Part shown: piece by piece, positions 5,180 through 64,000 of the stretch
Layout: every line of letters begins with the position of its first letter
Numbering within the stretch: position 1 is the first letter of the stretch
Notes under the pieces: model-generated
Seen by the model: the letters and a program-made list of their open reading frames with translations, nothing else
Databases searched by the model: none
What the model was told of the DNA's origin: nothing
Origin: an uncultured bacterium
GTDB taxonomy: Bacteria; Fermentibacterota; Fermentibacteria; Fermentibacterales; Fermentibacteraceae
Length of the DNA stretch: 64,000 nt
Direction of reading: 5' to 3'
Assembly: GCA_964603785.1 (NCBI GenBank)
Contig: CAZRWD010000009.1
Coordinates: forward strand, 18,082 to 82,081
Translations under genes and position numbers: made by a program

Positions 5180-6207
5180 CGCACTCCGCTGCCGGCCGTC
5201 TGCCTCCTGGCGAGGTGGATCCGGTCACCGGCCTGGACGAGGTCGGCGGTGACGTTCGCCGTGACCAGGACGGACGAGGTGGTGGATCCGGCGTCCAGGA
5301 CCAGCAGCTCGGCGATCGGGATGTCGGCGGTCACCAGCTCGGCGCCCGTGATGTCCTCGTCCAGGGTCCCGTACTTGTACAGAACGAAGACGTCGCCCTG
5401 GCGCAGGCCGCTGTCGCGGCCCCTGTTGATGTAGACGACGTCGTAGGCGAACGAGTCGGTGAAGTCCTTGTCCTGTACCGCTATCACCCATGCGGTGAGG
5501 CTCTCGACGGTCGGGGAGGTGTTGACTGGCACGTTCCCGGCCGGGGAGTACGGGACGAGGATGTCGCCGTCGTTGACGGGGATGTACGAATGCTCGACGA
5601 GGGCGATCGAGGTCGCCCCGGTCACCTCGAGGATCCTGACCACTCCGGCTACCCTGATGACGCTCCCGATGACGGCGTCCGTCTCGGGATCCCTGACCGT
5701 CTCACCCTGCTCGAGAACGTGCAGGACCATGCCCGACCTGGCCCCGTCGGCGTCCCCGTAGTCCAGCTCGACGAGGTCGCCCATGTAGCCGTTCTCGTTG
5801 CTGACGAAGCCCTGGTCCTCGATGTTGACCCTCAGCACCGCCCCGAGGGCGGGGATGGTCTGGCTGGTCACGAACCCGGCCGTCTCGAGCCTGAGCCTGC
5901 TTATCATGGGAGCGGTCGCCGCGAGAGTGGGTGACCGGACGGTCGACGTCACGTAGCTCCTGTCGACGGCCGCGGCCGGCAGCCCGGCGACTTCGGGGAG
6001 GAACAGCTCCATCCCGGGGACGAGGTACTCCGGGCCTGCGATCGACGGGTTGGCGGCGAGAATGTCGTCCCAGTAGTCAGGGCTGCCGTAGAAGCGGATG
6101 GAGAGGTCCCATAGGGTGTCGCCGTAGCCGACCTGGTAGGTCGAGGCTGCGGCCGAGACGCCAGCCAGGAGCGTCAAAGACATCAGAGAGCAAATCACCC
6201 CGCGCAT
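5176..6207 (-). CDS. Secreted LysM domain protein
   Basis: Signal peptide MRGVICSLMSLTLLAGVSAAAS, followed by the LysM motif YQVGYGDTLWDLSIRFYGSPDYWDDILAANP. Confidence 0.75.
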   Translation of the reverse strand: MRGVICSLMSLTLLAGVSAAASTYQVGYGDTLWDLSIRFYGSPDYWDDILAANPSIAGPEYLVPGMELFLPEVAGLPAAAVDRSYVTSTVRSPTLAATAPMISRLRLETAGFVTSQTIPALGAVLRVNIEDQGFVSNENGYMGDLVELDYGDADGARSGMVLHVLEQGETVRDPETDAVIGSVIRVAGVVRILEVTGATSIALVEHSYIPVNDGDILVPYSPAGNVPVNTSPTVESLTAWVIAVQDKDFTDSFAYDVVYINRGRDSGLRQGDVFVLYKYGTLDEDITGAELVTADIPIAELLVLDAGSTTSSVLVTANVTADLVQAGDRIHLARRQTAGSGVR

Positions 6208-6299
6208 CCGACACCTCCGTTGCCAGGCCGGACACCGCCGGCACGAATCTCATAACTTCATAAAATCTAAAGTTGGATGGCAGGCCGGGTCAATGACTT

Positions 6300-56872: not shown

Positions 56873-58029
56873 GCCCCAGCCTCCGTTCCGGGACCACGCC
56901 CGGCATCGACAACCGCCCTCGGCAGGAGAGGGCTTATCCTGGTGACGATCTCGTAGTTGATGGTACCCGCCCACGAGGCCATTGTTTCCGCGGAGACGGT
57001 CTCCGCACCGCTCCCGCCCAGCAGGGTGACCTCCTCCTCCAGGACGGGATCGGGGATGTCGGTGAGGTCTATCATGGTCAGGTTCATGCAGACTCGGCCG
57101 ACGATCGGCGCACGCCTGCCCCTCACGAGCACGAAGGCCGTGTTGCCGAGACCCCTGTCGAGACCGTCGGAGTAGCCGACGGGCAGGACCCCGATGAGGC
57201 TGCGCCTGGTGGTCCGGTATGTGCACCCGTAGCCGATGTAGCTGCCCTCGGGCATGTCCTTGACCTGGACGACGCGGGTCTTCCAGGAGAGCACCGGGCG
57301 CAGGTCGGGCACGCGGCCGCCTCCGGAGACCGCCGAGAGGTAGGTCTCCCGCGAGGGCCAGAGGCCGTAGAGCCCGATGCCGGTTCGGACCATGTCGAAC
57401 ACGGTCTCCCTGAACAGTATGCAGGCCGCGGTGCATGCCGTGTGGACGACGGGCGGCCGGTCGGGGCCCAGCGCGTCCAGCACCCGGCCGAAGATCTCGA
57501 GCTGCATCTCGGCGTACGAGTGGTTCAGCGTGTCCTCGATGTTGGCGAAGTGCGTGGAGAGGCCCTCGACCTCCACTCCGGGGATCTCCCTGGCCCGTCT
57601 GACGAGGGCCAGCGCCCCGGCGGGCTGGATGCCCTGCCGGCCGGTACCGGTCTCGACCTTGATGTGGATCCTCGCGGGCCTGGACGCCGAGGCGGCCGAC
57701 TCCAGGGCGGCGACCGTCTCCGGATTGTAGACCGTGAGCCTGAAGCCGCCGTCCAGGGCCTCGCCCAGCCTGCAAAGCGGAACGTGCCCCAGTATCAGGA
57801 CGGGCCTGGTGACACCGAGGGAGCGGAGCTCGACGGCCTCCTCGAGGGAGTTGACCGCGAACCAGTCGGCGGAGGGCAGAAGGGGGACGATCTCGCGGAC
57901 TCCGTGGCCGTATGCGTTGCCCTTGACCACCGCGCACATGAGCGCCTTCCCGCCGGCGGCCGTCCGCAGCTCCCGGAGGTTGCGGTCCGGCGCCTCCCTG
58001 TCGATTTCGACCCATACGAGGCTGCTCAT
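56863..58029 (-). CDS. alr: Alanine racemase
   Basis: AVVKGNAYGHG (PLP lysine region), the YGLWP-type motif, the C-terminal VCMNLTMID and GTINYEI. Confidence 0.85.
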   Translation of the reverse strand: MSSLVWVEIDREAPDRNLRELRTAAGGKALMCAVVKGNAYGHGVREIVPLLPSADWFAVNSLEEAVELRSLGVTRPVLILGHVPLCRLGEALDGGFRLTVYNPETVAALESAASASRPARIHIKVETGTGRQGIQPAGALALVRRAREIPGVEVEGLSTHFANIEDTLNHSYAEMQLEIFGRVLDALGPDRPPVVHTACTAACILFRETVFDMVRTGIGLYGLWPSRETYLSAVSGGGRVPDLRPVLSWKTRVVQVKDMPEGSYIGYGCTYRTTRRSLIGVLPVGYSDGLDRGLGNTAFVLVRGRRAPIVGRVCMNLTMIDLTDIPDPVLEEEVTLLGGSGAETVSAETMASWAGTINYEIVTRISPLLPRAVVDAGRGPGTEAGACS

Positions 58030-58083
58030 GACGAAAGCATAAGGACGCCCCCCTCTCGCAACAATCCCCGTCGGGGTTCCGTC

Positions 58084-58097
58084 GGGGTCAGGCTACT
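58084..58097. repeat. Copy 1 of 14-nt motif GGGGTCAGGCTACT (minus-strand sense AGTAGCCTGACCCC), ~55 nt upstream of alr
   Basis: Exact 14-mer seen three times in the window. This copy sits within a larger imperfect match including CTGCAATAG. Confidence 0.7.
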
Positions 58098-58137
58098 CAA
58101 GGCGCAATCCCTTCTATTGCAGCAAGGTGCAATTTCC

Positions 58138-58151
58138 GGGGTCAGGCTACT
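58138..58151. repeat. Copy 2 of 14-nt motif GGGGTCAGGCTACT
   Basis: Exact repeat 54 nt downstream of copy 1, preceded by CCGG as in copy 1 (GTCGGGG context). Confidence 0.7.
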
Positions 58152-58351
58152 TTGTGCGTAACACACCGGTCGCAGCTGATCCGCGTCCGTATCCAACAGC
58201 AGCGCAATTGCATGGCAGGATGCTGACCGTCCGCGACGTCGGCCGGCAGACTCTTCCGTCGCGATCGGCCTGCGGGGGCATGCGCAGTGTCGTCCTTGAC
58301 TGTTCGCTGCGATGCAGATATCTCCCTTTCATGTGGACGAAGGGGGGCGTC

Positions 58352-58978
58352 ATGAGACTTGTGGTCCTTCTCGCTTTCGCGACGGTCTTCGCATCGACGG
58401 CTTCTGCCGACGGGCTGCGCCTCGACAGGCCGGTCACCGTCGATTCTCCCGATCTGGTTCTCCAGTACGACGACGGAAGCGCCTACTGGCTCACATGGAC
58501 CGGGCTGTACAAGGGGGTCTGGTTCAACATCGACGACTTCGGCCAGGGGCTCATGTGGGTGGCCGAACAGAGCCAGCTCTGGTTCTATCACCACCCGAGC
58601 TACTCCTGGGACACGTCATCCTTCTACTGCGAGCTGTACAACGGCGACCAGTCCGGTCCGGTCCCGGTCAGCCTGATGGATCAGACCTCGATGGCCGCCA
58701 TACACTACCAGCCGGTGTACACCTACCACTGGCCGGCACCCCAGTGCGGCCCCGACTTCTGGATAGTCGTGAACTCGGAGATGTCCTCCGGCGGGTGGCC
58801 GTCGCTGCTAAGCGACGGATCGACGAGACCCGTCGCGCACAGCTTCCACAGCGACGACTTCGAGGTCTGGGAGCCCTGGTTGTCGGCCACCCAGAAGTGC
58901 GACTACATGATACGCTCCACCGGGTGGCAGACCGCCCTGGAGAGCGCGACCTGGGGTTCGATAAAGGCCATCTTCTGA
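58352..58978 (+). CDS. Secreted Trp/Tyr-rich hypothetical protein (208 aa)
   Basis: ATG with SD AAGGGGGG at a 4-nt spacing. Signal peptide MRLVVLLAFATVFASTASA. GC3-biased. The upstream 75 aa of the table ORF cross a lower-GC intergenic region. Confidence 0.55.
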   Translation: MRLVVLLAFATVFASTASADGLRLDRPVTVDSPDLVLQYDDGSAYWLTWTGLYKGVWFNIDDFGQGLMWVAEQSQLWFYHHPSYSWDTSSFYCELYNGDQSGPVPVSLMDQTSMAAIHYQPVYTYHWPAPQCGPDFWIVVNSEMSSGGWPSLLSDGSTRPVAHSFHSDDFEVWEPWLSATQKCDYMIRSTGWQTALESATWGSIKAIF

Positions 58979-59163
58979 AACGGGGCAGGCTGCTCGGCTC
59001 GTAAACGACTGATCTGCAGCAATCTGACAGAATCGTATCAAGACTGCTCGAATGCAGCCCGACTGGTCGTATCTACCCGGGGCACCTGCAAGCCTTTCGC
59101 CGATGGACGAGGAGCCTGACACCGCCCTTTTCAAGCCATTGCTGATCAGGCATCTGCAATAGC

Positions 59164-59177
59164 AGTAGCCTGACCCC
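59164..59177. repeat. Copy 3 of the 14-nt motif, here AGTAGCCTGACCCC on the plus strand, ~40 nt upstream of the DUF362 gene ATG
   Basis: Reverse complement of copies 1 and 2, preceded by CTGCAATAGC as in the minus-strand reading of copy 1. Confidence 0.7.
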
Positions 59178-59216
59178 CTCCACTTGCCTTATGAATACCT
59201 CCTCACGGAGGTGGCC

Positions 59217-60302
59217 ATGTCCACAGTGTTCCTGAAGAGGATGGAGCCTGGCGGGGGGACGGGCGACCTCACCCCCCTCCTCGGGCGGTTCGCGGGATCG
59301 GTCGCCGCCAGCCCCACCGACCTCGTCGCGGTCAAGATCCATGCGGGCGAGGCGGGGAACACGAGATTCATACCGCCGTCCGGCATCAACGAGGTGGTCA
59401 GGGCGCTGGAGCTCCCCGGGGGGAGTACGTTCCTCACCGACACCACTGTGCTGTACCGCGGACGCCGGCTCACCGCTCCGGCATACCTGCAGCTGGCCCA
59501 CGAGCACGGGTTCGGCCTGCCCTCGACCCCGCCCTTCATAGTGGCGGACGGGCTGCGCGGCACGGACGAGACTGCGGTGAAGCTTCCCTCCTGCTGCGAC
59601 GGGCCGTCGGCCAGGATCGCCAGCCTCATCTGCGAGGCCGACTCGATGGTGGTGGTGAGCCACTTCAAGGGGCACCTCCTGGCGGGGTTCGGCGGCGCGA
59701 TCAAGAACATCGGCATGGGCTGCGCCTCCCGCGGGGGCAAGCTCTACATGCACTCCTCGGTCAAGCCTGCGGTCCGCGAGGCGAAGTGCACGGCATGCGG
59801 CACATGCGTCGAGCACTGCCCCGTGGGGGCCATCACGGTCCGATCGAAGGCGGTCATCGGCGACTCGCGGTGCGTGGGATGCGGAGAGTGCATACAGCGG
59901 TGCCCCTTCGGGGCGATAGGCGTGAACTGGAACCAGGAGCGCGGAGTGTTCACGACACGACTGGCGGAGTATGCGGTGGCGGTGGCCTCGGTCACGCGAA
60001 TCCCCGTCTATGTGAACTTCCTCGTGAACATCGCCGGGGACTGCGACTGCCTGGCGGACTCGGGCGGGCTGCTGGTCCCGGACATCGGGGTCGTGGCTTC
60101 CACCGACCCGGTGGCCGTCGACCAGGCCTCGCTCGACCTGGTGACCTCGGCGGCGGCGGGGACGGGGTCGCCCGTAGCCGGCGCGGGGCCCGGCGTGGAC
60201 AAGTTCAGGGCGCTGCGGAAGGACATCGACGGCTCGGAGGTGCTCGAGACCGCCCAGTCCTTCGGCCTCGGCTCCCGCCGATACCTCCTTGAGGAAGTCT
60301 AG
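59217..60302 (+). CDS. DUF362-domain protein with central 2x[4Fe-4S] ferredoxin domain
   Basis: CTACGTCVEHCPVGAI and CVGCGECIQRCPFGAI (two CxxCxxCxxxCP motifs), flanked by DUF362-like N- and C-terminal regions (VKIHAGEAGN..., VNFLVNIAGDCDC). ATG 59217 with SD GGAGGTG. Confidence 0.75.
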   Translation: MSTVFLKRMEPGGGTGDLTPLLGRFAGSVAASPTDLVAVKIHAGEAGNTRFIPPSGINEVVRALELPGGSTFLTDTTVLYRGRRLTAPAYLQLAHEHGFGLPSTPPFIVADGLRGTDETAVKLPSCCDGPSARIASLICEADSMVVVSHFKGHLLAGFGGAIKNIGMGCASRGGKLYMHSSVKPAVREAKCTACGTCVEHCPVGAITVRSKAVIGDSRCVGCGECIQRCPFGAIGVNWNQERGVFTTRLAEYAVAVASVTRIPVYVNFLVNIAGDCDCLADSGGLLVPDIGVVASTDPVAVDQASLDLVTSAAAGTGSPVAGAGPGVDKFRALRKDIDGSEVLETAQSFGLGSRRYLLEEV

Positions 60303-60313
60303 TCCGGGGTCAC

Positions 60314-60357
60314 AGTCAGAAAAGACAGAAAAGACAGAAAACGGTGACGACCGGTCC
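60314..60357. repeat. 44-bp A-rich direct repeat, copy 1: AGTCAGAAAAGACAGAAAAGACAGAAAACGGTGACGACCGGTCC
   Basis: Perfect 44/44 identity with 61424-61467. Begins 11 nt after the DUF362 gene stop. Contains an internal tandem AGAAAAGAC x2.5 and a small hairpin CGGTgacgACCG. Confidence 0.9.
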
Positions 60358-60594
60358 TGACCCGGGGGCCCCGCAGTACGAAGCCCATGCCCCGAACGAC
60401 CTGCTCACGAGAGGTGCGCCCTCGACACCTCGCACCCCCCAGGGAGGTGTGATAGACCACCTCCCGTAACCAGCCTGTCTACATCCGCCTGCCCCCCGGC
60501 CTCCCCGATGTCGCCGTCGACCGCCGTCCCCGATTTCCTTCCCACTTGGCATTGTTGTATCATGCCGCAACATTCTCCAGCGGAGGTTTAATGA

Positions 60595-61425
60595 ATGACA
60601 TGCCTTGCGGTCCTGATGGCTCTCTCGCAGGTGATGACGGACAAGGGGCAGGCGGCCTACTTCTACGGGGAGTTCGAGGAGGGGATCGCGGTCGTCTGGT
60701 GCGAGGCCGCTCTCCTGTCCGGCCCCGTGGAGGATGCTGACACCGTGGAACTCGTCACTCCAGGCACGATGGTGGAGATCTGCGGCCCCCCCGACGGTTC
60801 GCTGATCAGGAACGGTGCTGGCACCGAGTGGTACCCGGTGGTGACGGACAGGCATCAGGGCTACCTCGCCGGCATCGAGCTGGCGATGGCCTTCACAACC
60901 CTGGACGACGGGACCGTCCTCGCATGTGCCCTGACCGACCGCTCCGGGAAGGTCTACCCGGTGTTCCACGGCGCCGTGATCGCGCTCGACGGGCACGGGG
61001 GAGTCCTCGACTCCGTGCCGGTCGACATGCCCCACATGCTCGACGAGATACCGCCGGAGGGCGTGTACGGATACTGCGCTGCATTCGAGGAGGCCGACAC
61101 CGAAGGTCTCGAAGGCATCCCCCTCGGGGCGATGCTCGCCTTCGACTACGGCGCCTGCGGCTATGCGAACACCGACCAGCTCGTCGGGTGGGACGGGGAG
61201 AGGCTCGTTCCAGGCCCGAAGGTCGCAATGGTAGTCGAGGCCGGCGTCTTCCACTGGACCCAGACCATGGTCCTGCCCTCGGACGAGGGTGGGCGTCCCA
61301 ACGAGGTGCTGGTGGTCGAGGTCAGCGAGGAGTTCTCGGAGGATGACATGGCCTACTACGAGACCGCCCGCGACACCACAGTGGTCTTCTGGGATGGAGA
61401 GGACTTCTCCGGCCCGGACTCGTAG
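60595..61425 (+). CDS. Hypothetical acidic protein (276 aa)
   Basis: ATG with SD GGAGG 8 nt upstream. Good GC3 bias. No family recognised. Flanked by the two 44-bp repeat copies. Confidence 0.55.
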   Translation: MTCLAVLMALSQVMTDKGQAAYFYGEFEEGIAVVWCEAALLSGPVEDADTVELVTPGTMVEICGPPDGSLIRNGAGTEWYPVVTDRHQGYLAGIELAMAFTTLDDGTVLACALTDRSGKVYPVFHGAVIALDGHGGVLDSVPVDMPHMLDEIPPEGVYGYCAAFEEADTEGLEGIPLGAMLAFDYGACGYANTDQLVGWDGERLVPGPKVAMVVEAGVFHWTQTMVLPSDEGGRPNEVLVVEVSEEFSEDDMAYYETARDTTVVFWDGEDFSGPDS

Positions 61426-61467
61426 TCAGAAAAGACAGAAAAGACAGAAAACGGTGACGACCGGTCC
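61424..61467. repeat. 44-bp A-rich direct repeat, copy 2
   Basis: Identical to 60314-60357. Its first two bases overlap the TAG stop of the 60595..61425 gene. Confidence 0.9.
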
Positions 61468-61472
61468 GGGGG

Positions 61473-62075
61473 TCAGTCGGGTTCCCCCGACCGCTCCCAG
61501 CTGCTCCTGAAGACCCTGTAGACGTGGTAATGAACCGGCGCGGTGACCTCCCGCACATCCGGCGGGAAGGTGTAGACACCCTCGTCGACCTTCTCCCCGC
61601 CCACTGCCTCCTGCATGCGGATCGATGCCGCATTGTCCCTGTTAGGGATCGCCTCCACGGCCGTGCAGCAGGTATGTGTGAACAGGTGGTCCAGCAGCAT
61701 CAGCTTGGTCTCTGTTCCATAGCCCCTCCCCTGGCGTGCGGGGAGCAGCTTGATGTCCGTCCGGGCGATCCCCCGGACGTCGGGTCTGTGCATCATGCAC
61801 TCCCCGATCGGCTCGCCCGATGACATCTCGACCACTACAAGCAGTTGGCCCAGGAGGCCCTCGCCCATGCAGGCGATGCGGTCGCGCACACCGTCCACGT
61901 CCACGGCCAGCCCCTCGGGGAAGCCCACCCAGGCCATGACGCGAGGGTCCGTCCACAGCTCGACGAGCAGCTCCGCGTCGGCTACGACCGCTCTGCGCAC
62001 CATCAGCCTGGATGACCTCAGATCTGCCGGGCCTGCTCCTCCCGGGTCCGATCTCCGTCCTGCCACCCGCAACAT
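61473..62075 (-). CDS. GNAT-family N-acetyltransferase
   Basis: RLMVRRAVVADAELLVELWTDPRVMAW..., and LLPARQGRGYGTETKLMLLDHLF (acetyl-CoA binding Q/RxxGxG/A). Start MLRVAGRR at aa 50 of the table ORF. Confidence 0.72.
   Translation of the reverse strand: MLRVAGRRSDPGGAGPADLRSSRLMVRRAVVADAELLVELWTDPRVMAWVGFPEGLAVDVDGVRDRIACMGEGLLGQLLVVVEMSSGEPIGECMMHRPDVRGIARTDIKLLPARQGRGYGTETKLMLLDHLFTHTCCTAVEAIPNRDNAASIRMQEAVGGEKVDEGVYTFPPDVREVTAPVHYHVYRVFRSSWERSGEPD
61476..61491. terminator. GC-rich hairpin GTCGGG-TTCC-CCCGAC between the convergent 60595..61425 (+) and GNAT (-) genes
   Basis: 6-bp perfect stem with a 4-nt loop. On the minus strand it is followed ~25 nt later by the T-rich complement of the 44-bp repeat (TTTTCTGTCTTTTCTGTCTTTTCT). 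No U-tract directly abuts the stem, so terminator function is uncertain. Confidence 0.3.
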
Positions 62076-62229
62076 CCCTCCATCCTGCACCCGGCCGACT
62101 ATGATCGTCAGCCCACGCCGACCGCCAGCACGGGAGCGGGAGCAGGTGACCCTCACCGGACCTGCCGTTCCCGGCCGGATCGATGAAGGCCGGCGACCAT
62201 CCGGTGCCCCAGAATGTGACATCGATATC

Positions 62230-62264
62230 TTGACATCTTGACATCAGACTGTCATAATCCTCCC
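62230..62264 (+). promoter_or_regulatory. Sigma70-like promoter of the MerR-family gene, with operator dyad TTGACA-N6-TGTCAT inside the spacer; likely leaderless transcript
   Basis: -35 TTGACA at 62230-62235; -10 CATAAT at 62253-62258 (17-nt spacer) or TAATCC at 62255-62260 (19-nt spacer, the MerR-type geometry). A second TTGACA at 62238-62243 forms an inverted repeat with TGTCAT at 62250-62255. ATG 62265 lies ~7 nt after the -10, with no SD between. Confidence 0.45.
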
Positions 62265-62642
62265 ATGAAGCAACAGAGATACACCATCGGCGAGCTCGCT
62301 GCCCTCACGGGGGTCAGCCGCCGCACGGTCCGGTTCTACGTGCAGAGGGGGCTCATCCCCCCTCCCCTGGGCGCAGGACGGGGCAGCTTCTACACGGACG
62401 AGCACCTCGGACTGATCAGGGGCATCAGAAGCAGGCAGGCCGCGCCCGCGCCCTGCAGCCCTTCGTACACGTCACCGACGAAGCCGGCGCGCCGGGTCGC
62501 AGTGACCCGGATAGAACTGGACCATGGTGTCACCATCGAGCTGTCGGCGGGGCTGCCCGTCCCGTCCGACCGCGTGCTGGGCGAGATCGCCCGAATCCTC
62601 ATGACAGGAGAGTGCACAAGTGTCTCCGAGGAAGAGCGTTAG
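62265..62642 (+). CDS. MerR-family transcriptional regulator
   Basis: N-terminal HTH YTIGELAALTGVSRRTVRFYVQRGLIPP. ATG 62265 preferred over the table TTG 62238, which lies inside the promoter. Confidence 0.8.
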   Translation: MKQQRYTIGELAALTGVSRRTVRFYVQRGLIPPPLGAGRGSFYTDEHLGLIRGIRSRQAAPAPCSPSYTSPTKPARRVAVTRIELDHGVTIELSAGLPVPSDRVLGEIARILMTGECTSVSEEER

Positions 62643-64000
62643 AACCGGCAGCGGAGGAGGAGCCCCGGAGCCCGAAGGGCCCGGCCTCCGCACGACCGGG
62701 GGAGCACCGGTCCCCCTCCTGGGGGTCGATGTCGCCGTCACCATGACCGATCTCGCGGTGCGCACCGTCCTCACACAGCGGTTCCGCAACCTCGAGGGCG
62801 AGCCGATCGAGGCCGTCTACAGCTTCCCGCTCCCCGAGGACAGCGCCGTCTGCGGCTTCGAGGCCGAGCTGGGCGGCAGGCTCGTGAAGGGCCGCATCGA
62901 GGATCGGGAGAAGGCCTTCGAGGACTACGACAAGGCTCTCGCGGAAGGCCATTCCGCGCTCCTCCTCGACCAGTCCAGGCCCGACATCTTCGTCGTCTCC
63001 GTCGGCAGGCTGATGCCGGGCGAGGAGGCGACGGTGAGGATCAGCCACGTCTCGAGGGCCGAATCGCACGACAGGGGCCTCCGACTGCGCATCCCGACAA
63101 CCGTCTCGCCGAGGTACGTCCCCCCGGAGCAGCTCCGCACCGGCGACCCCGCAGACCTCGACGCGATACTGCCGCCAACGGTCCTGGGCCGGGTCCCCTA
63201 CGGCCTGACAATGAAGGTGGAGCTGTCCGCCCCCGGCCCGGTCAGGCGCATCGCCTGCCCGTCCCATCCGGTCGAGGTTTCCGTCAAGGGCAGGAGGGCG
63301 ACGGTCGCCCTCGCCGGACGCGACATCCAGCTCGACTCCGACTTCGTCCTGGAGATCGAACTCGAGAAGCCCTCGGCGCCCGCGGTAACCGTTTGCCGCG
63401 ACGGCGACGGCTTCGCCCTGATGGTCCGCACGAGACCCGACGTCCCGGCCGGGGACGACGGGCCGCGCGACGTCCTCTTCGTCATCGACAGGTCCGGCTC
63501 CATGCAGGGCGAGAGCATGGAGGAGGCCAGGTCGGCCCTCCTGCTCGCCCTCAAGTCCCTGCGGGAGGGAGACCGTTTCAACGTCACGGGCTTCGGCAGC
63601 AGGTGGGAGAGCATCTTCGACAGGCCGGCTGACTGCACGCAGGAGTCCGTGAGCGGCGCCCTGAAGGCCATCGGGGGGTGGGACGCCGACATGGGCGGCA
63701 CCGAGATCCTCCAGCCCCTCAGGGCTGCTCTGGAGAGCCTGGACGGCAAGAGGCCGGCCAGCATCATCCTCCTTACAGACGGGGAGGTCGGGAACGAGGC
63801 CGAGGTGATCGCGCTGGCCGGGAAGCACCGGTCGCGGTGCAGGATCTTCACCTTCGGCATAGGCAGGGGCGCGAGCGGCACGCTCGTCAGGGGCGTCGCG
63901 GCGGCCTCCGGGGGCGCCGCCGAGTTCATCTACCCAGGCGAGCGCATCGAGCCCAAGGTCATGCGCCAGATGGCGCGCCTCTCGGGGATGTCCGCCCTGT
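62620..64000 (+). CDS. VIT-domain + von Willebrand factor type A (vWA) domain protein; partial, continues past window end
   Basis: My own translation of the plus strand (it is not in the ORF table because there is no stop within the window). The VIT block is TDLAVRTVLTQRFRNLEGEPIEAVYSFPLPEDSAVCGFEAELGGRLVKGRIEDREKA. The vWA MIDAS is VLFVIDRSGSMQGESM...ILLTDGEV. Start GTG 62620 (overlaps the MerR 3' end by 23 nt) or ATG 62743. Confidence 0.78.
   Translation, partial: MSPRKSVRTGSGGGAPEPEGPGLRTTGGAPVPLLGVDVAVTMTDLAVRTVLTQRFRNLEGEPIEAVYSFPLPEDSAVCGFEAELGGRLVKGRIEDREKAFEDYDKALAEGHSALLLDQSRPDIFVVSVGRLMPGEEATVRISHVSRAESHDRGLRLRIPTTVSPRYVPPEQLRTGDPADLDAILPPTVLGRVPYGLTMKVELSAPGPVRRIACPSHPVEVSVKGRRATVALAGRDIQLDSDFVLEIELEKPSAPAVTVCRDGDGFALMVRTRPDVPAGDDGPRDVLFVIDRSGSMQGESMEEARSALLLALKSLREGDRFNVTGFGSRWESIFDRPADCTQESVSGALKAIGGWDADMGGTEILQPLRAALESLDGKRPASIILLTDGEVGNEAEVIALAGKHRSRCRIFTFGIGRGASGTLVRGVAAASGGAAEFIYPGERIEPKVMRQMARLSGMSAL

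Follow-up and report, generated by a model that had tools for sequence, protein, structure and literature searches.

An exact 44-bp A-rich direct repeat on either side of a single gene in an uncultured member of Fermentibacterota

The window, which is the whole 64-kb stretch of DNA analysed, is ordinary chromosome and encodes SecA, Lon, RecG, PBPs, a T2SS ATPase and TrkH. Its G + C content is 68.8%, close to the value of 70% first given for the genome. The gene order at the locus is alanine racemase (minus strand), a 208-aa secreted hypothetical protein (hyp208, plus), a DUF362 protein (plus), repeat copy 1, 237 nt of DNA, ORF276 (plus), repeat copy 2, a GNAT acetyltransferase (minus) and a MerR-family regulator (plus). 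Coordinates are given in Table 1. The hyp208 gene is a second single-gene insertion of 1.1 kb, located just upstream of DUF362 and bounded by 14-bp inverted repeats that begin with GGGGTCA. No tRNA or tmRNA is present in the window. No integrase, transposase or recombinase is listed in the Pfam tables of the genes within about 10 kb on each side.

Table 1. Positions of the two repeat copies, of the segment between them and of the adjacent genes in the window.
Feature	Position	Strand	Description
DUF362 protein, left neighbour	59217..60302	+	Two 4Fe-4S motifs; last gene of a block syntenic across Fermentibacteria
Repeat copy 1	60314..60357	+	Exact 44-bp direct repeat, 11 nt past the DUF362 stop
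9-bp tandem CAGAAAAGA x2.8	60317..60341 (copy 1), 61427..61451 (copy 2)	+	
Bracketed segment, putatively inserted DNA	60358..61423	+	1,066 bp, 65.9% GC; 237 nt of upstream DNA and the gene
Promoter/RBS-like stretch (TGTnTATC ... GGAGG), approximate	60530..60594	+	Aligns upstream of the L027 and L032 homologues
ORF276	60595..61425	+	276 aa, uncharacterised family
Repeat copy 2	61424..61467	+	Exact 44-bp direct repeat between ORF276 and GNAT
GNAT (Acetyltransf_3), right neighbour	61473..62003	-	Convergent, accessory gene; homologues at most 61% identical, in other phyla and contexts

The repeat, AGTCAGAAAAGACAGAAAAGACAGAAAACGGTGACGACCGGTCC, is an exact direct 44-mer on the plus strand. Its two copies have 0 mismatches and a spacing of 1110 bp, as stated in the initial annotation. 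A third match with up to 3 mismatches is found neither in the 64-kb window nor in 100 shuffles. The 44-mer is the longest dispersed exact repeat of the 64 kb, exceeded among all exact repeats only by a tandem array at position 1609. Identity is lost sharply at both edges, and flank-to-flank similarity is at background level (permutation test, four flanks, p=0.16-0.73). The 9-bp tandem lies within each copy. G + C content of the repeat is 47.7%, well off the background composition of the window, as had been noted. The A-rich tract consists of 17 A, 5 G and 2 C in 24 nt, and is therefore not the 25-nt tract of A and G only that was described at first; purine-only runs of 18 nt or more are absent. 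Besides the two copies, the window's only A-rich tract is an intergenic AT-rich patch at roughly 6175-6271. 

Both copies lie close to the stop codon of a plus-strand gene. The earlier description, which placed each copy right after a stop codon, needs adjusting at both sites: the first two bases of copy 2 are also the end of the ORF276 TAG (61423-61425), which they complete, and copy 1 begins 11 nt past the DUF362 TAG (60300-60302). The 3' edge of copy 2 is 5 nt from the stop of the opposite-strand GNAT gene. ORF276 and GNAT converge across a gap of 47 nt, nearly all of which copy 2 occupies.

The presence of both copies was examined in Logan contigs (k=31) from many samples (>20), fetched by exact-protein look-up of DUF362, ORF276 and GNAT. 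Every contig recovered for DUF362 (ten contigs), for the cassette (three) and for GNAT (ten) terminates within the 44-mer, and one of the cassette contigs is present in at least 20 samples. In a simulated de Bruijn graph, a true two-context repeat shorter than 2k breaks contigs in the manner seen. Since the k=31 contigs of every flank stop within the repeat, each of the four junctions occurs in independent read sets. The pair is not an assembly duplication; the artefact considered in the initial annotation, a single copy in the raw reads, is thus excluded.

The k=31 graph does not pair left with right flanks, and the linkage used here is that of the window's own assembly, which joins both junctions in the order given above within a contig reported as 89.5 kb. 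This linkage could be an assembly choice, the true arrangement being an empty site (DUF362-44-mer-GNAT) together with a free or tandemly amplified circle of 1,110 bp. A k=31 graph with two paths into the 44-mer and two out of it is equally compatible with such a circle. The arrangement is nevertheless very improbable: to join both junctions, the 89.5-kb contig needs k-mers or reads longer than 44 nt across each of them, the branching is seen in every sample that has the flanks, and the 1.1-kb unit carries no replication gene.

Left-anchored Logan contigs end at repeat positions 16/18 and 26/29, where the simulation predicted 30. These early ends hint at extra branching in the A-rich tract, caused by population heterogeneity or by error k-mers.

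The bracketed segment carries a single gene. Within its upstream DNA, positions 60358-60520 have no match to anything, no remnant of an ancestral divergent 288-aa gene is detected by tblastn in 60358-60594, and no further copies of the 237 nt were found. ORF276 has no match in Pfam, NCBIfam or PADLOC, and no homologue in plasmids or phages. A profile search with ORF276 returns 249 representative clusters of similar length. The SH3_3 domain (bacterial SH3 domain) occurs in 28 of 52 sampled members of the family, ORF276 itself being without a Pfam match. The AlphaFold model of ORF276, built with the family alignment, has a pLDDT of 95.2; in a Foldseek comparison with the PDB it matches an SH3b piece only, with no whole-protein fold match. 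GC3 of the gene is 0.87. Since this value is typical of the genome, ORF276 is regarded as native to this lineage or to a close one.

Close homologues of ORF276 form only two clusters in a word-indexed search (P0002, 63%; P0003, 61%). Both are taken to represent other species, not paralogues, because their samples differ from most of those of this organism. The two homologue loci share a conserved block, PTA-SSF-POR-POR-288aa(-)-homologue(+)-568aa(-), unlike the neighbourhood in the window. In this block the homologues overlap the convergent neighbouring gene, and the A-rich element is absent. DNA homology between the window and the homologue loci extends from about 60530 to about 61412-61423 only and ends where copy 2 starts. 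It comprises the coding region and the short promoter/RBS-like stretch, and lies wholly between the repeats. ORF276 and its homologues share the protein end point except for the last three residues.

On the left side, the block S26 peptidase-RadC-aconitase-metallophosphatase-NamZ-lactamase_B-AlaR-DUF362 is kept in six relatives. The genes past DUF362 vary among the six, being usually MscL-Dabb-RF1, sometimes others, and never GNAT or ORF276. On the right side, the nearest homologues of GNAT belong to mixed phyla, and the nearest one examined stands in an unrelated context. Because the downstream genes differ and the context of the GNAT homologue is unrelated, synteny is taken to break at the 3' end of DUF362, with accessory genes past this point. 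The hyp208 insertion lies on the other side of DUF362; for this reason the DUF362 locus is considered to accept insertions. The best matches of the DUF362 protein assign the organism to Candidatus Fermentibacteria; by the same protein (70% identity), the nearest GTDB representative is a complete 2.5-Mb Fermentibacteria MAG chromosome. An empty site DUF362-44-mer-GNAT was sought from the DUF362 and the GNAT sides and not found, the flanks being adjacent in no genome retrieved; in the nearest relatives of this search DUF362 is only 70-75% identical and is followed by other genes.

The 44-mers may well be the duplicated junctions of a recent, lineage-specific insertion, either attL/attR-like or a long target duplication. 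A piece of 1,066 bp, comprising a gene of an SH3b-associated family and its own upstream region, would have entered the few nucleotides that separate the convergent genes DUF362 and GNAT, and one 44-bp stretch would have been duplicated and left on either side of the insert. By one route, a circular copy of the segment would cross over with the chromosome at a 44-bp sequence common to both, by means of a site-specific recombinase acting in trans or of RecA. By another, the target would be opened by staggered breaks and then filled in. Judged from the sequence, circle crossover and fill-in target duplication could equally account for the structure. The 44-mer would need no present-day function. 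The observations themselves are the exact repeat, both junctions in independent reads, the other location of the gene in close relatives, the confined homology, the breakpoint and the lack of further copies nearby; the insertion event, its recency and its route are inferred.

Several observations argue for the insertion: identity of 44/44 between copies with unrelated flanks, the four junctions in k=31 assemblies of many samples, the location of ORF276 elsewhere in close relatives, the confinement of homology between the repeats, the coincidence of the site with a synteny breakpoint, the restriction of the 44-mer to two closely spaced copies in about 70 kb, and the second insertion beside DUF362. 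Against it, 44 bp is far above the length of ordinary transposase target duplications, and the insert is without terminal inverted repeats. Each copy adjoins a TAG stop, a placement not expected from a duplication by accident alone, and the alien composition of the 44-mer (48% G + C, with a tandem 9-mer) suggests something other than ordinary spacer. No empty site was found, nor any integrase or transposase within about 10 kb, nor a tRNA or tmRNA. Among the options offered by the initial annotation, the attL/attR-like scar has the best support, from the relocated gene, the confined homology and the breakpoint; an empty site, a recombinase and a tRNA target were not found. The absence of differences (0/44) implies neutral divergence of less than about 3% since duplication, unless the copies were homogenised.

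The position of the copies at gene ends also admits a different explanation, in which the 44-mer belongs to a dispersed family of short repeats or is a functional 3'-end module placed after stop codons. Such a module could be bound by a protein or an RNA at its A-rich sequence, serve as an insulator or work as an unconventional terminator; the two adjacent genes would each happen to have one, or it would move along with genes. The starts of the copies at, or 11 nt past, the TAG of a plus-strand gene are consistent with it, as are a composition extreme for the genome and an internal 9-bp tandem that resembles a repeated binding motif. Canonical intrinsic terminators are not enriched in the window, and other 3'-end signals may be used. 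The ends of the Logan contigs, earlier than a two-copy graph predicts, could mean more contexts or variants.

The distribution of the 44-mer speaks against such a family or module. Its 21-mer core has 0 matches in GTDB representative genomes, including the complete 2.5-Mb Fermentibacteria chromosome, and 0 in viral contigs; three matches in JGI metagenomes fall on otherwise dissimilar low-GC contigs and are due to chance. A sequence-only model search of the window and 5.8 kb beyond it (about 70 kb of this genome) and of about 150 kb of relatives' loci recovers only the two known copies, with their truncated images in Logan contigs. No diverged copies occur in either set, whereas real families usually vary. 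The two copies are 1.1 kb apart (p of about 0.03 if random; for two random copies in 64 kb to fall within 1.1 kb the chance is 0.034), and some 50 other gene ends in the window are without the 44-mer. As RNA from either strand, alone or in its flanking context, the 44-mer does not fold better than shuffled sequences (z -1.5 to +0.3), and its sole internal helix is the 4-bp CGGU/ACCG. The window has no Rfam match at the gathering threshold, and a permissive local scan gives chance matches only (E>1). A dispersed family or 3'-end module is accordingly rather unlikely. The conserved 3'-UTR or sRNA element proposed at first is not supported, there being no copy in relatives or public collections, no significant fold and no Rfam match.

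Stop-codon readthrough was considered and rejected. The copies are in different frames relative to the upstream genes and give no common extension peptide.

On the complementary strand the 44-mer could act as a terminator of the GNAT gene, with the hairpin CGGUcgucACCG followed by a U-rich tract, which would have been copied when the neighbouring gene arrived. The layout exists as initially described: the 4-bp minus-strand hairpin is directly followed by UUUUCUGUCUUUUCUGUCUUUU, and copy 2 is 5 nt past the GNAT stop. The remainder of that proposal fares poorly. The stem has only 4 bp, and the whole 44-mer folds at -6.8 kcal/mol (z -0.4); intrinsic terminators have a GC-rich stem of at least 5 bp and an immediate U tract, and the stem here falls short of that length. 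A terminator scan of 57800-62800 calls no terminator-like site. No minus-strand gene lies upstream of copy 1. The equivalent convergent junctions of relatives use GC-rich hairpins. A GNAT terminator is improbable on these grounds.

The structure was compared with known mobile and repeat systems. Cis-mobilizable elements (CIMEs, as defined in PMC5704250) are similar in that identical direct repeats of tens of bp, attL and attR, flank foreign or relocated DNA without integration genes. Likewise, the end repeats of the cassette are identical (44/44), and ORF276 follows DUF362 in none of the relatives examined. Unlike in a CIME, the block is 1.1 kb long with one cargo gene, no tRNA/tmRNA or cognate integrase is seen nearby, the place of a gene 3' end is taken by an A-rich sequence that contains a tandem 9-mer, and neither an excision product nor an empty site was found.

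Integron cassettes share with the locus a single promoter-proximal ORF followed by a repeat resembling a recombination site, the same repeat standing after the preceding gene. They differ in that the repeat here is an exact 44 bp without an imperfect-palindrome fold, and the cassette has its own upstream region. attC cores (GTTRRRY/RYYYAAC) are absent within about 100 nt of either copy on both strands; IntI is absent from the Pfam tables for about 10 kb on each side and from the large ORFs of the window, which are housekeeping. A broader proposal is that the A-rich 44-mer is the recombination site of an unrecognised system in Fermentibacteria that shuffles single-gene cassettes, with the recombinase encoded elsewhere, the 3' end of DUF362 as a cassette-acceptor hotspot and hyp208 as a second example. 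The 44-mer would then function like integron attC sites or plasmid pdif modules, with unrelated sequence. This proposal, taken as a whole, is given little probability.

Transposases and casposases also leave the target directly duplicated, with one copy at each end of the insert. The duplications of IS elements and transposons measure about 2-14 bp and those of casposons about 14-15 bp. The repeat differs in its length of 44 bp, in the lack of terminal inverted repeats and in the lack of a visible transposase. No inverted similarity connects the two ends of the insert (L2 vs rc(R1) score 10, p=0.73), which, with the 44-bp length of the duplication, sets it apart from DDE transposons, MITEs and MICs.

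REP elements are imperfect GC-rich palindromes that number tens to hundreds per genome. Like REP/BIME elements, the 44-mer is a short non-coding repeat between convergent genes, just past stop codons; unlike them, it is A-rich, unstructured and exact, with only two copies in the approximately 70 kb searched. CRISPR arrays have at least three repeats with spacers of about 25-70 bp; here two repeats are separated by 1,066 bp and a gene. Diversity-generating retroelements have a TR/VR pair that differs at adenines, with the VR in a target gene and a reverse transcriptase (RT) close by; here the copies are identical and non-coding, and no RT is present in the neighbouring gene tables (about 10 kb).

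Most likely the structure is an insertion scar in a gene-flux hotspot, a single event and not a new system of regulation or mobility. If the insertion is true, the locus would record a clean, recent relocation of a single gene within or between genomes of Fermentibacterota, an uncultured phylum often present in anaerobic digesters. Its junctions would be unusually long and exact, and the 3' end of DUF362 would be a local hotspot of gene flux. The cassette could be lost or amplified through recombination between the two copies. Insertions flanked by direct repeats are a familiar class, of which the 44-mer would be a new example and not the opening of a new field; greater weight would attach to it only if the 44-mer brackets other genes elsewhere in the genome.

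A transposon end was considered as well. On this explanation GGGGTCAC together with the 44-mer would correspond to a terminal repeat of Tn3/Tn21 type, and the direct orientation would result from one-ended transposition or from decay of a TIME/MIC-like cassette. The left flank and copy 1 read GGGGTCACAGTCAGAAAA...AGAAAACGG, comparable with the verified Tn21 inverted repeat GGGGGCACCTCAGAAAACGG..., and GGGGTCA also opens the 14-bp inverted repeats of the hyp208 insertion. Against this, the alignment score is 21 in a window background of 18-20, the GGGG flank is present at copy 1 only, the similarity of the flanks is not significant, and the copies are direct, not inverted. Tn3-family ends are 38-bp inverted repeats of the form GGGG...TAAG, accompanied by TnpA and a 5-bp duplication; the locus has no TAAG end and no 5-bp duplication, and no TnpA is found among the large ORFs. 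The chance that the 44-mer is a transposon end of this kind, with either origin of its orientation, is very slight. The resemblance to the Tn21/Tn3 inverted repeat was dropped, its score being near background and its orientation wrong.

Mobile insertion cassettes (MICs) and Tn3-derived miniature elements (TIMEs) are small non-autonomous units in which a passenger gene may travel. Having inverted ends of 14 bp, the hyp208 unit is closer to this description than the 44-mer cassette, whose repeats are direct and bear no significant resemblance to a Tn3-family end. The alignment of the flanks is likewise not significant, and the heptamer GGGGTCA, shared by the flank of copy 1 and the hyp208 inverted repeats, seems locally enriched.

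Left-anchored Logan contigs (k = 31) of both the DUF362 side and the ORF276 cassette end 1–14 nt short of position 30 within the A-rich tract of the 44-mer, the exact direct repeat bracketing the ORF276 segment. Position 30 is the end predicted from a two-copy k = 31 graph. Right-anchored contigs end exactly where the graph predicts for them. The early left-anchored ends suggest that the 9-bp tandem of the 44-mer is heterogeneous or gives error-prone k-mers.

A short sequence match could hint at derivation of part of the 44-mer from the donor locus. The 44-mer contains GACGACCGG in its 3′ part (61449–61457). The reverse complement of this sequence, the 9-mer CCGGTCGTC, lies directly 3′ of the stop codon of the ORF276 homologue in both relatives (L027, 10871–10885; L032, 6013–6027). 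A related sequence, CCGGACTCGT, occurs at the end of the window's own ORF276. The chance estimate for the CCGGTCGTC/GACGACCGG match, made post hoc, is about 0.01–0.03.

The family of ORF276 (60595–61425) is uncharacterised and comprises about 250 clusters at 50% identity, with members of 260–300 aa, a conserved YEACGY motif and, in many members, an SH3b domain at the N-terminal end. AlphaFold models the protein with very high confidence (pLDDT 95); the larger, beta-rich domain of the model has no match in the PDB by Foldseek. The hairpin upstream of ORF276 is without a T tract and matched, in a permissive Rfam scan, only a miRNA model, by chance.

Coordinates of the features (window positions)
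Feature	Position	Details
Mosaic tandem array, non-coding	1607–1830	just 3′ of MBL-fold gene (1852–2508, −)
hyp208 unit	58084–59177	1,094 bp; gene 58352–58978, +; other side of DUF362 from ORF276 segment
Logan contig ends, left-flank-anchored (L004–L013; L001–L003)	60329/60331; 61449/61452	
Perfect 8-bp hairpin GGGAGGTG-TGATAGAC-CACCTCCC	60441–60464	upstream part of inferred inserted segment
Near-consensus sigma-70-type promoter (predicted)	62227–62258	upstream of MerR-family gene
hyp208 paralogue	about 69470–69806 (past window end)	same strand as hyp208; on Logan contig L014

The hyp208 unit, which carries the gene of a 208-aa secreted hypothetical protein, is a second insertion of a single gene and spans about 1.1 kb. 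The gap between the alanine racemase gene and DUF362, occupied by hyp208 in the window, is only about 60–100 nt in six relatives. Perfect 14-bp inverted repeats enclose the unit: GGGGTCAGGCTACT at 58084 and its reverse complement at 59164–59177. At both ends a subterminal CTATTGCAG comes next, and an additional direct copy of GGGGTCAGGCTACT lies at 58138. No target duplication is visible around it. The unit looks like a non-autonomous cassette with a passenger gene. The hyp208 paralogue, about 10.5 kb downstream, shows 75% nucleotide identity to hyp208 across 208 nt; the GGGGTCAGGCTACT motif is absent upstream of it, and breaks of Logan contigs fall within it.

Two further features lie towards the window ends. 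The tandem array comprises five units, each with GCCCGGCGTCCG(A/G) at its start: two of 39 bp (100% identical), two of 60 bp (88%) and one partial. The predicted promoter reads TTGACA-17-CATAAT with a TG (11 of 12 matches) and is overlapped by the 8-bp tandem ATCTTGAC, present in 2.4 copies.
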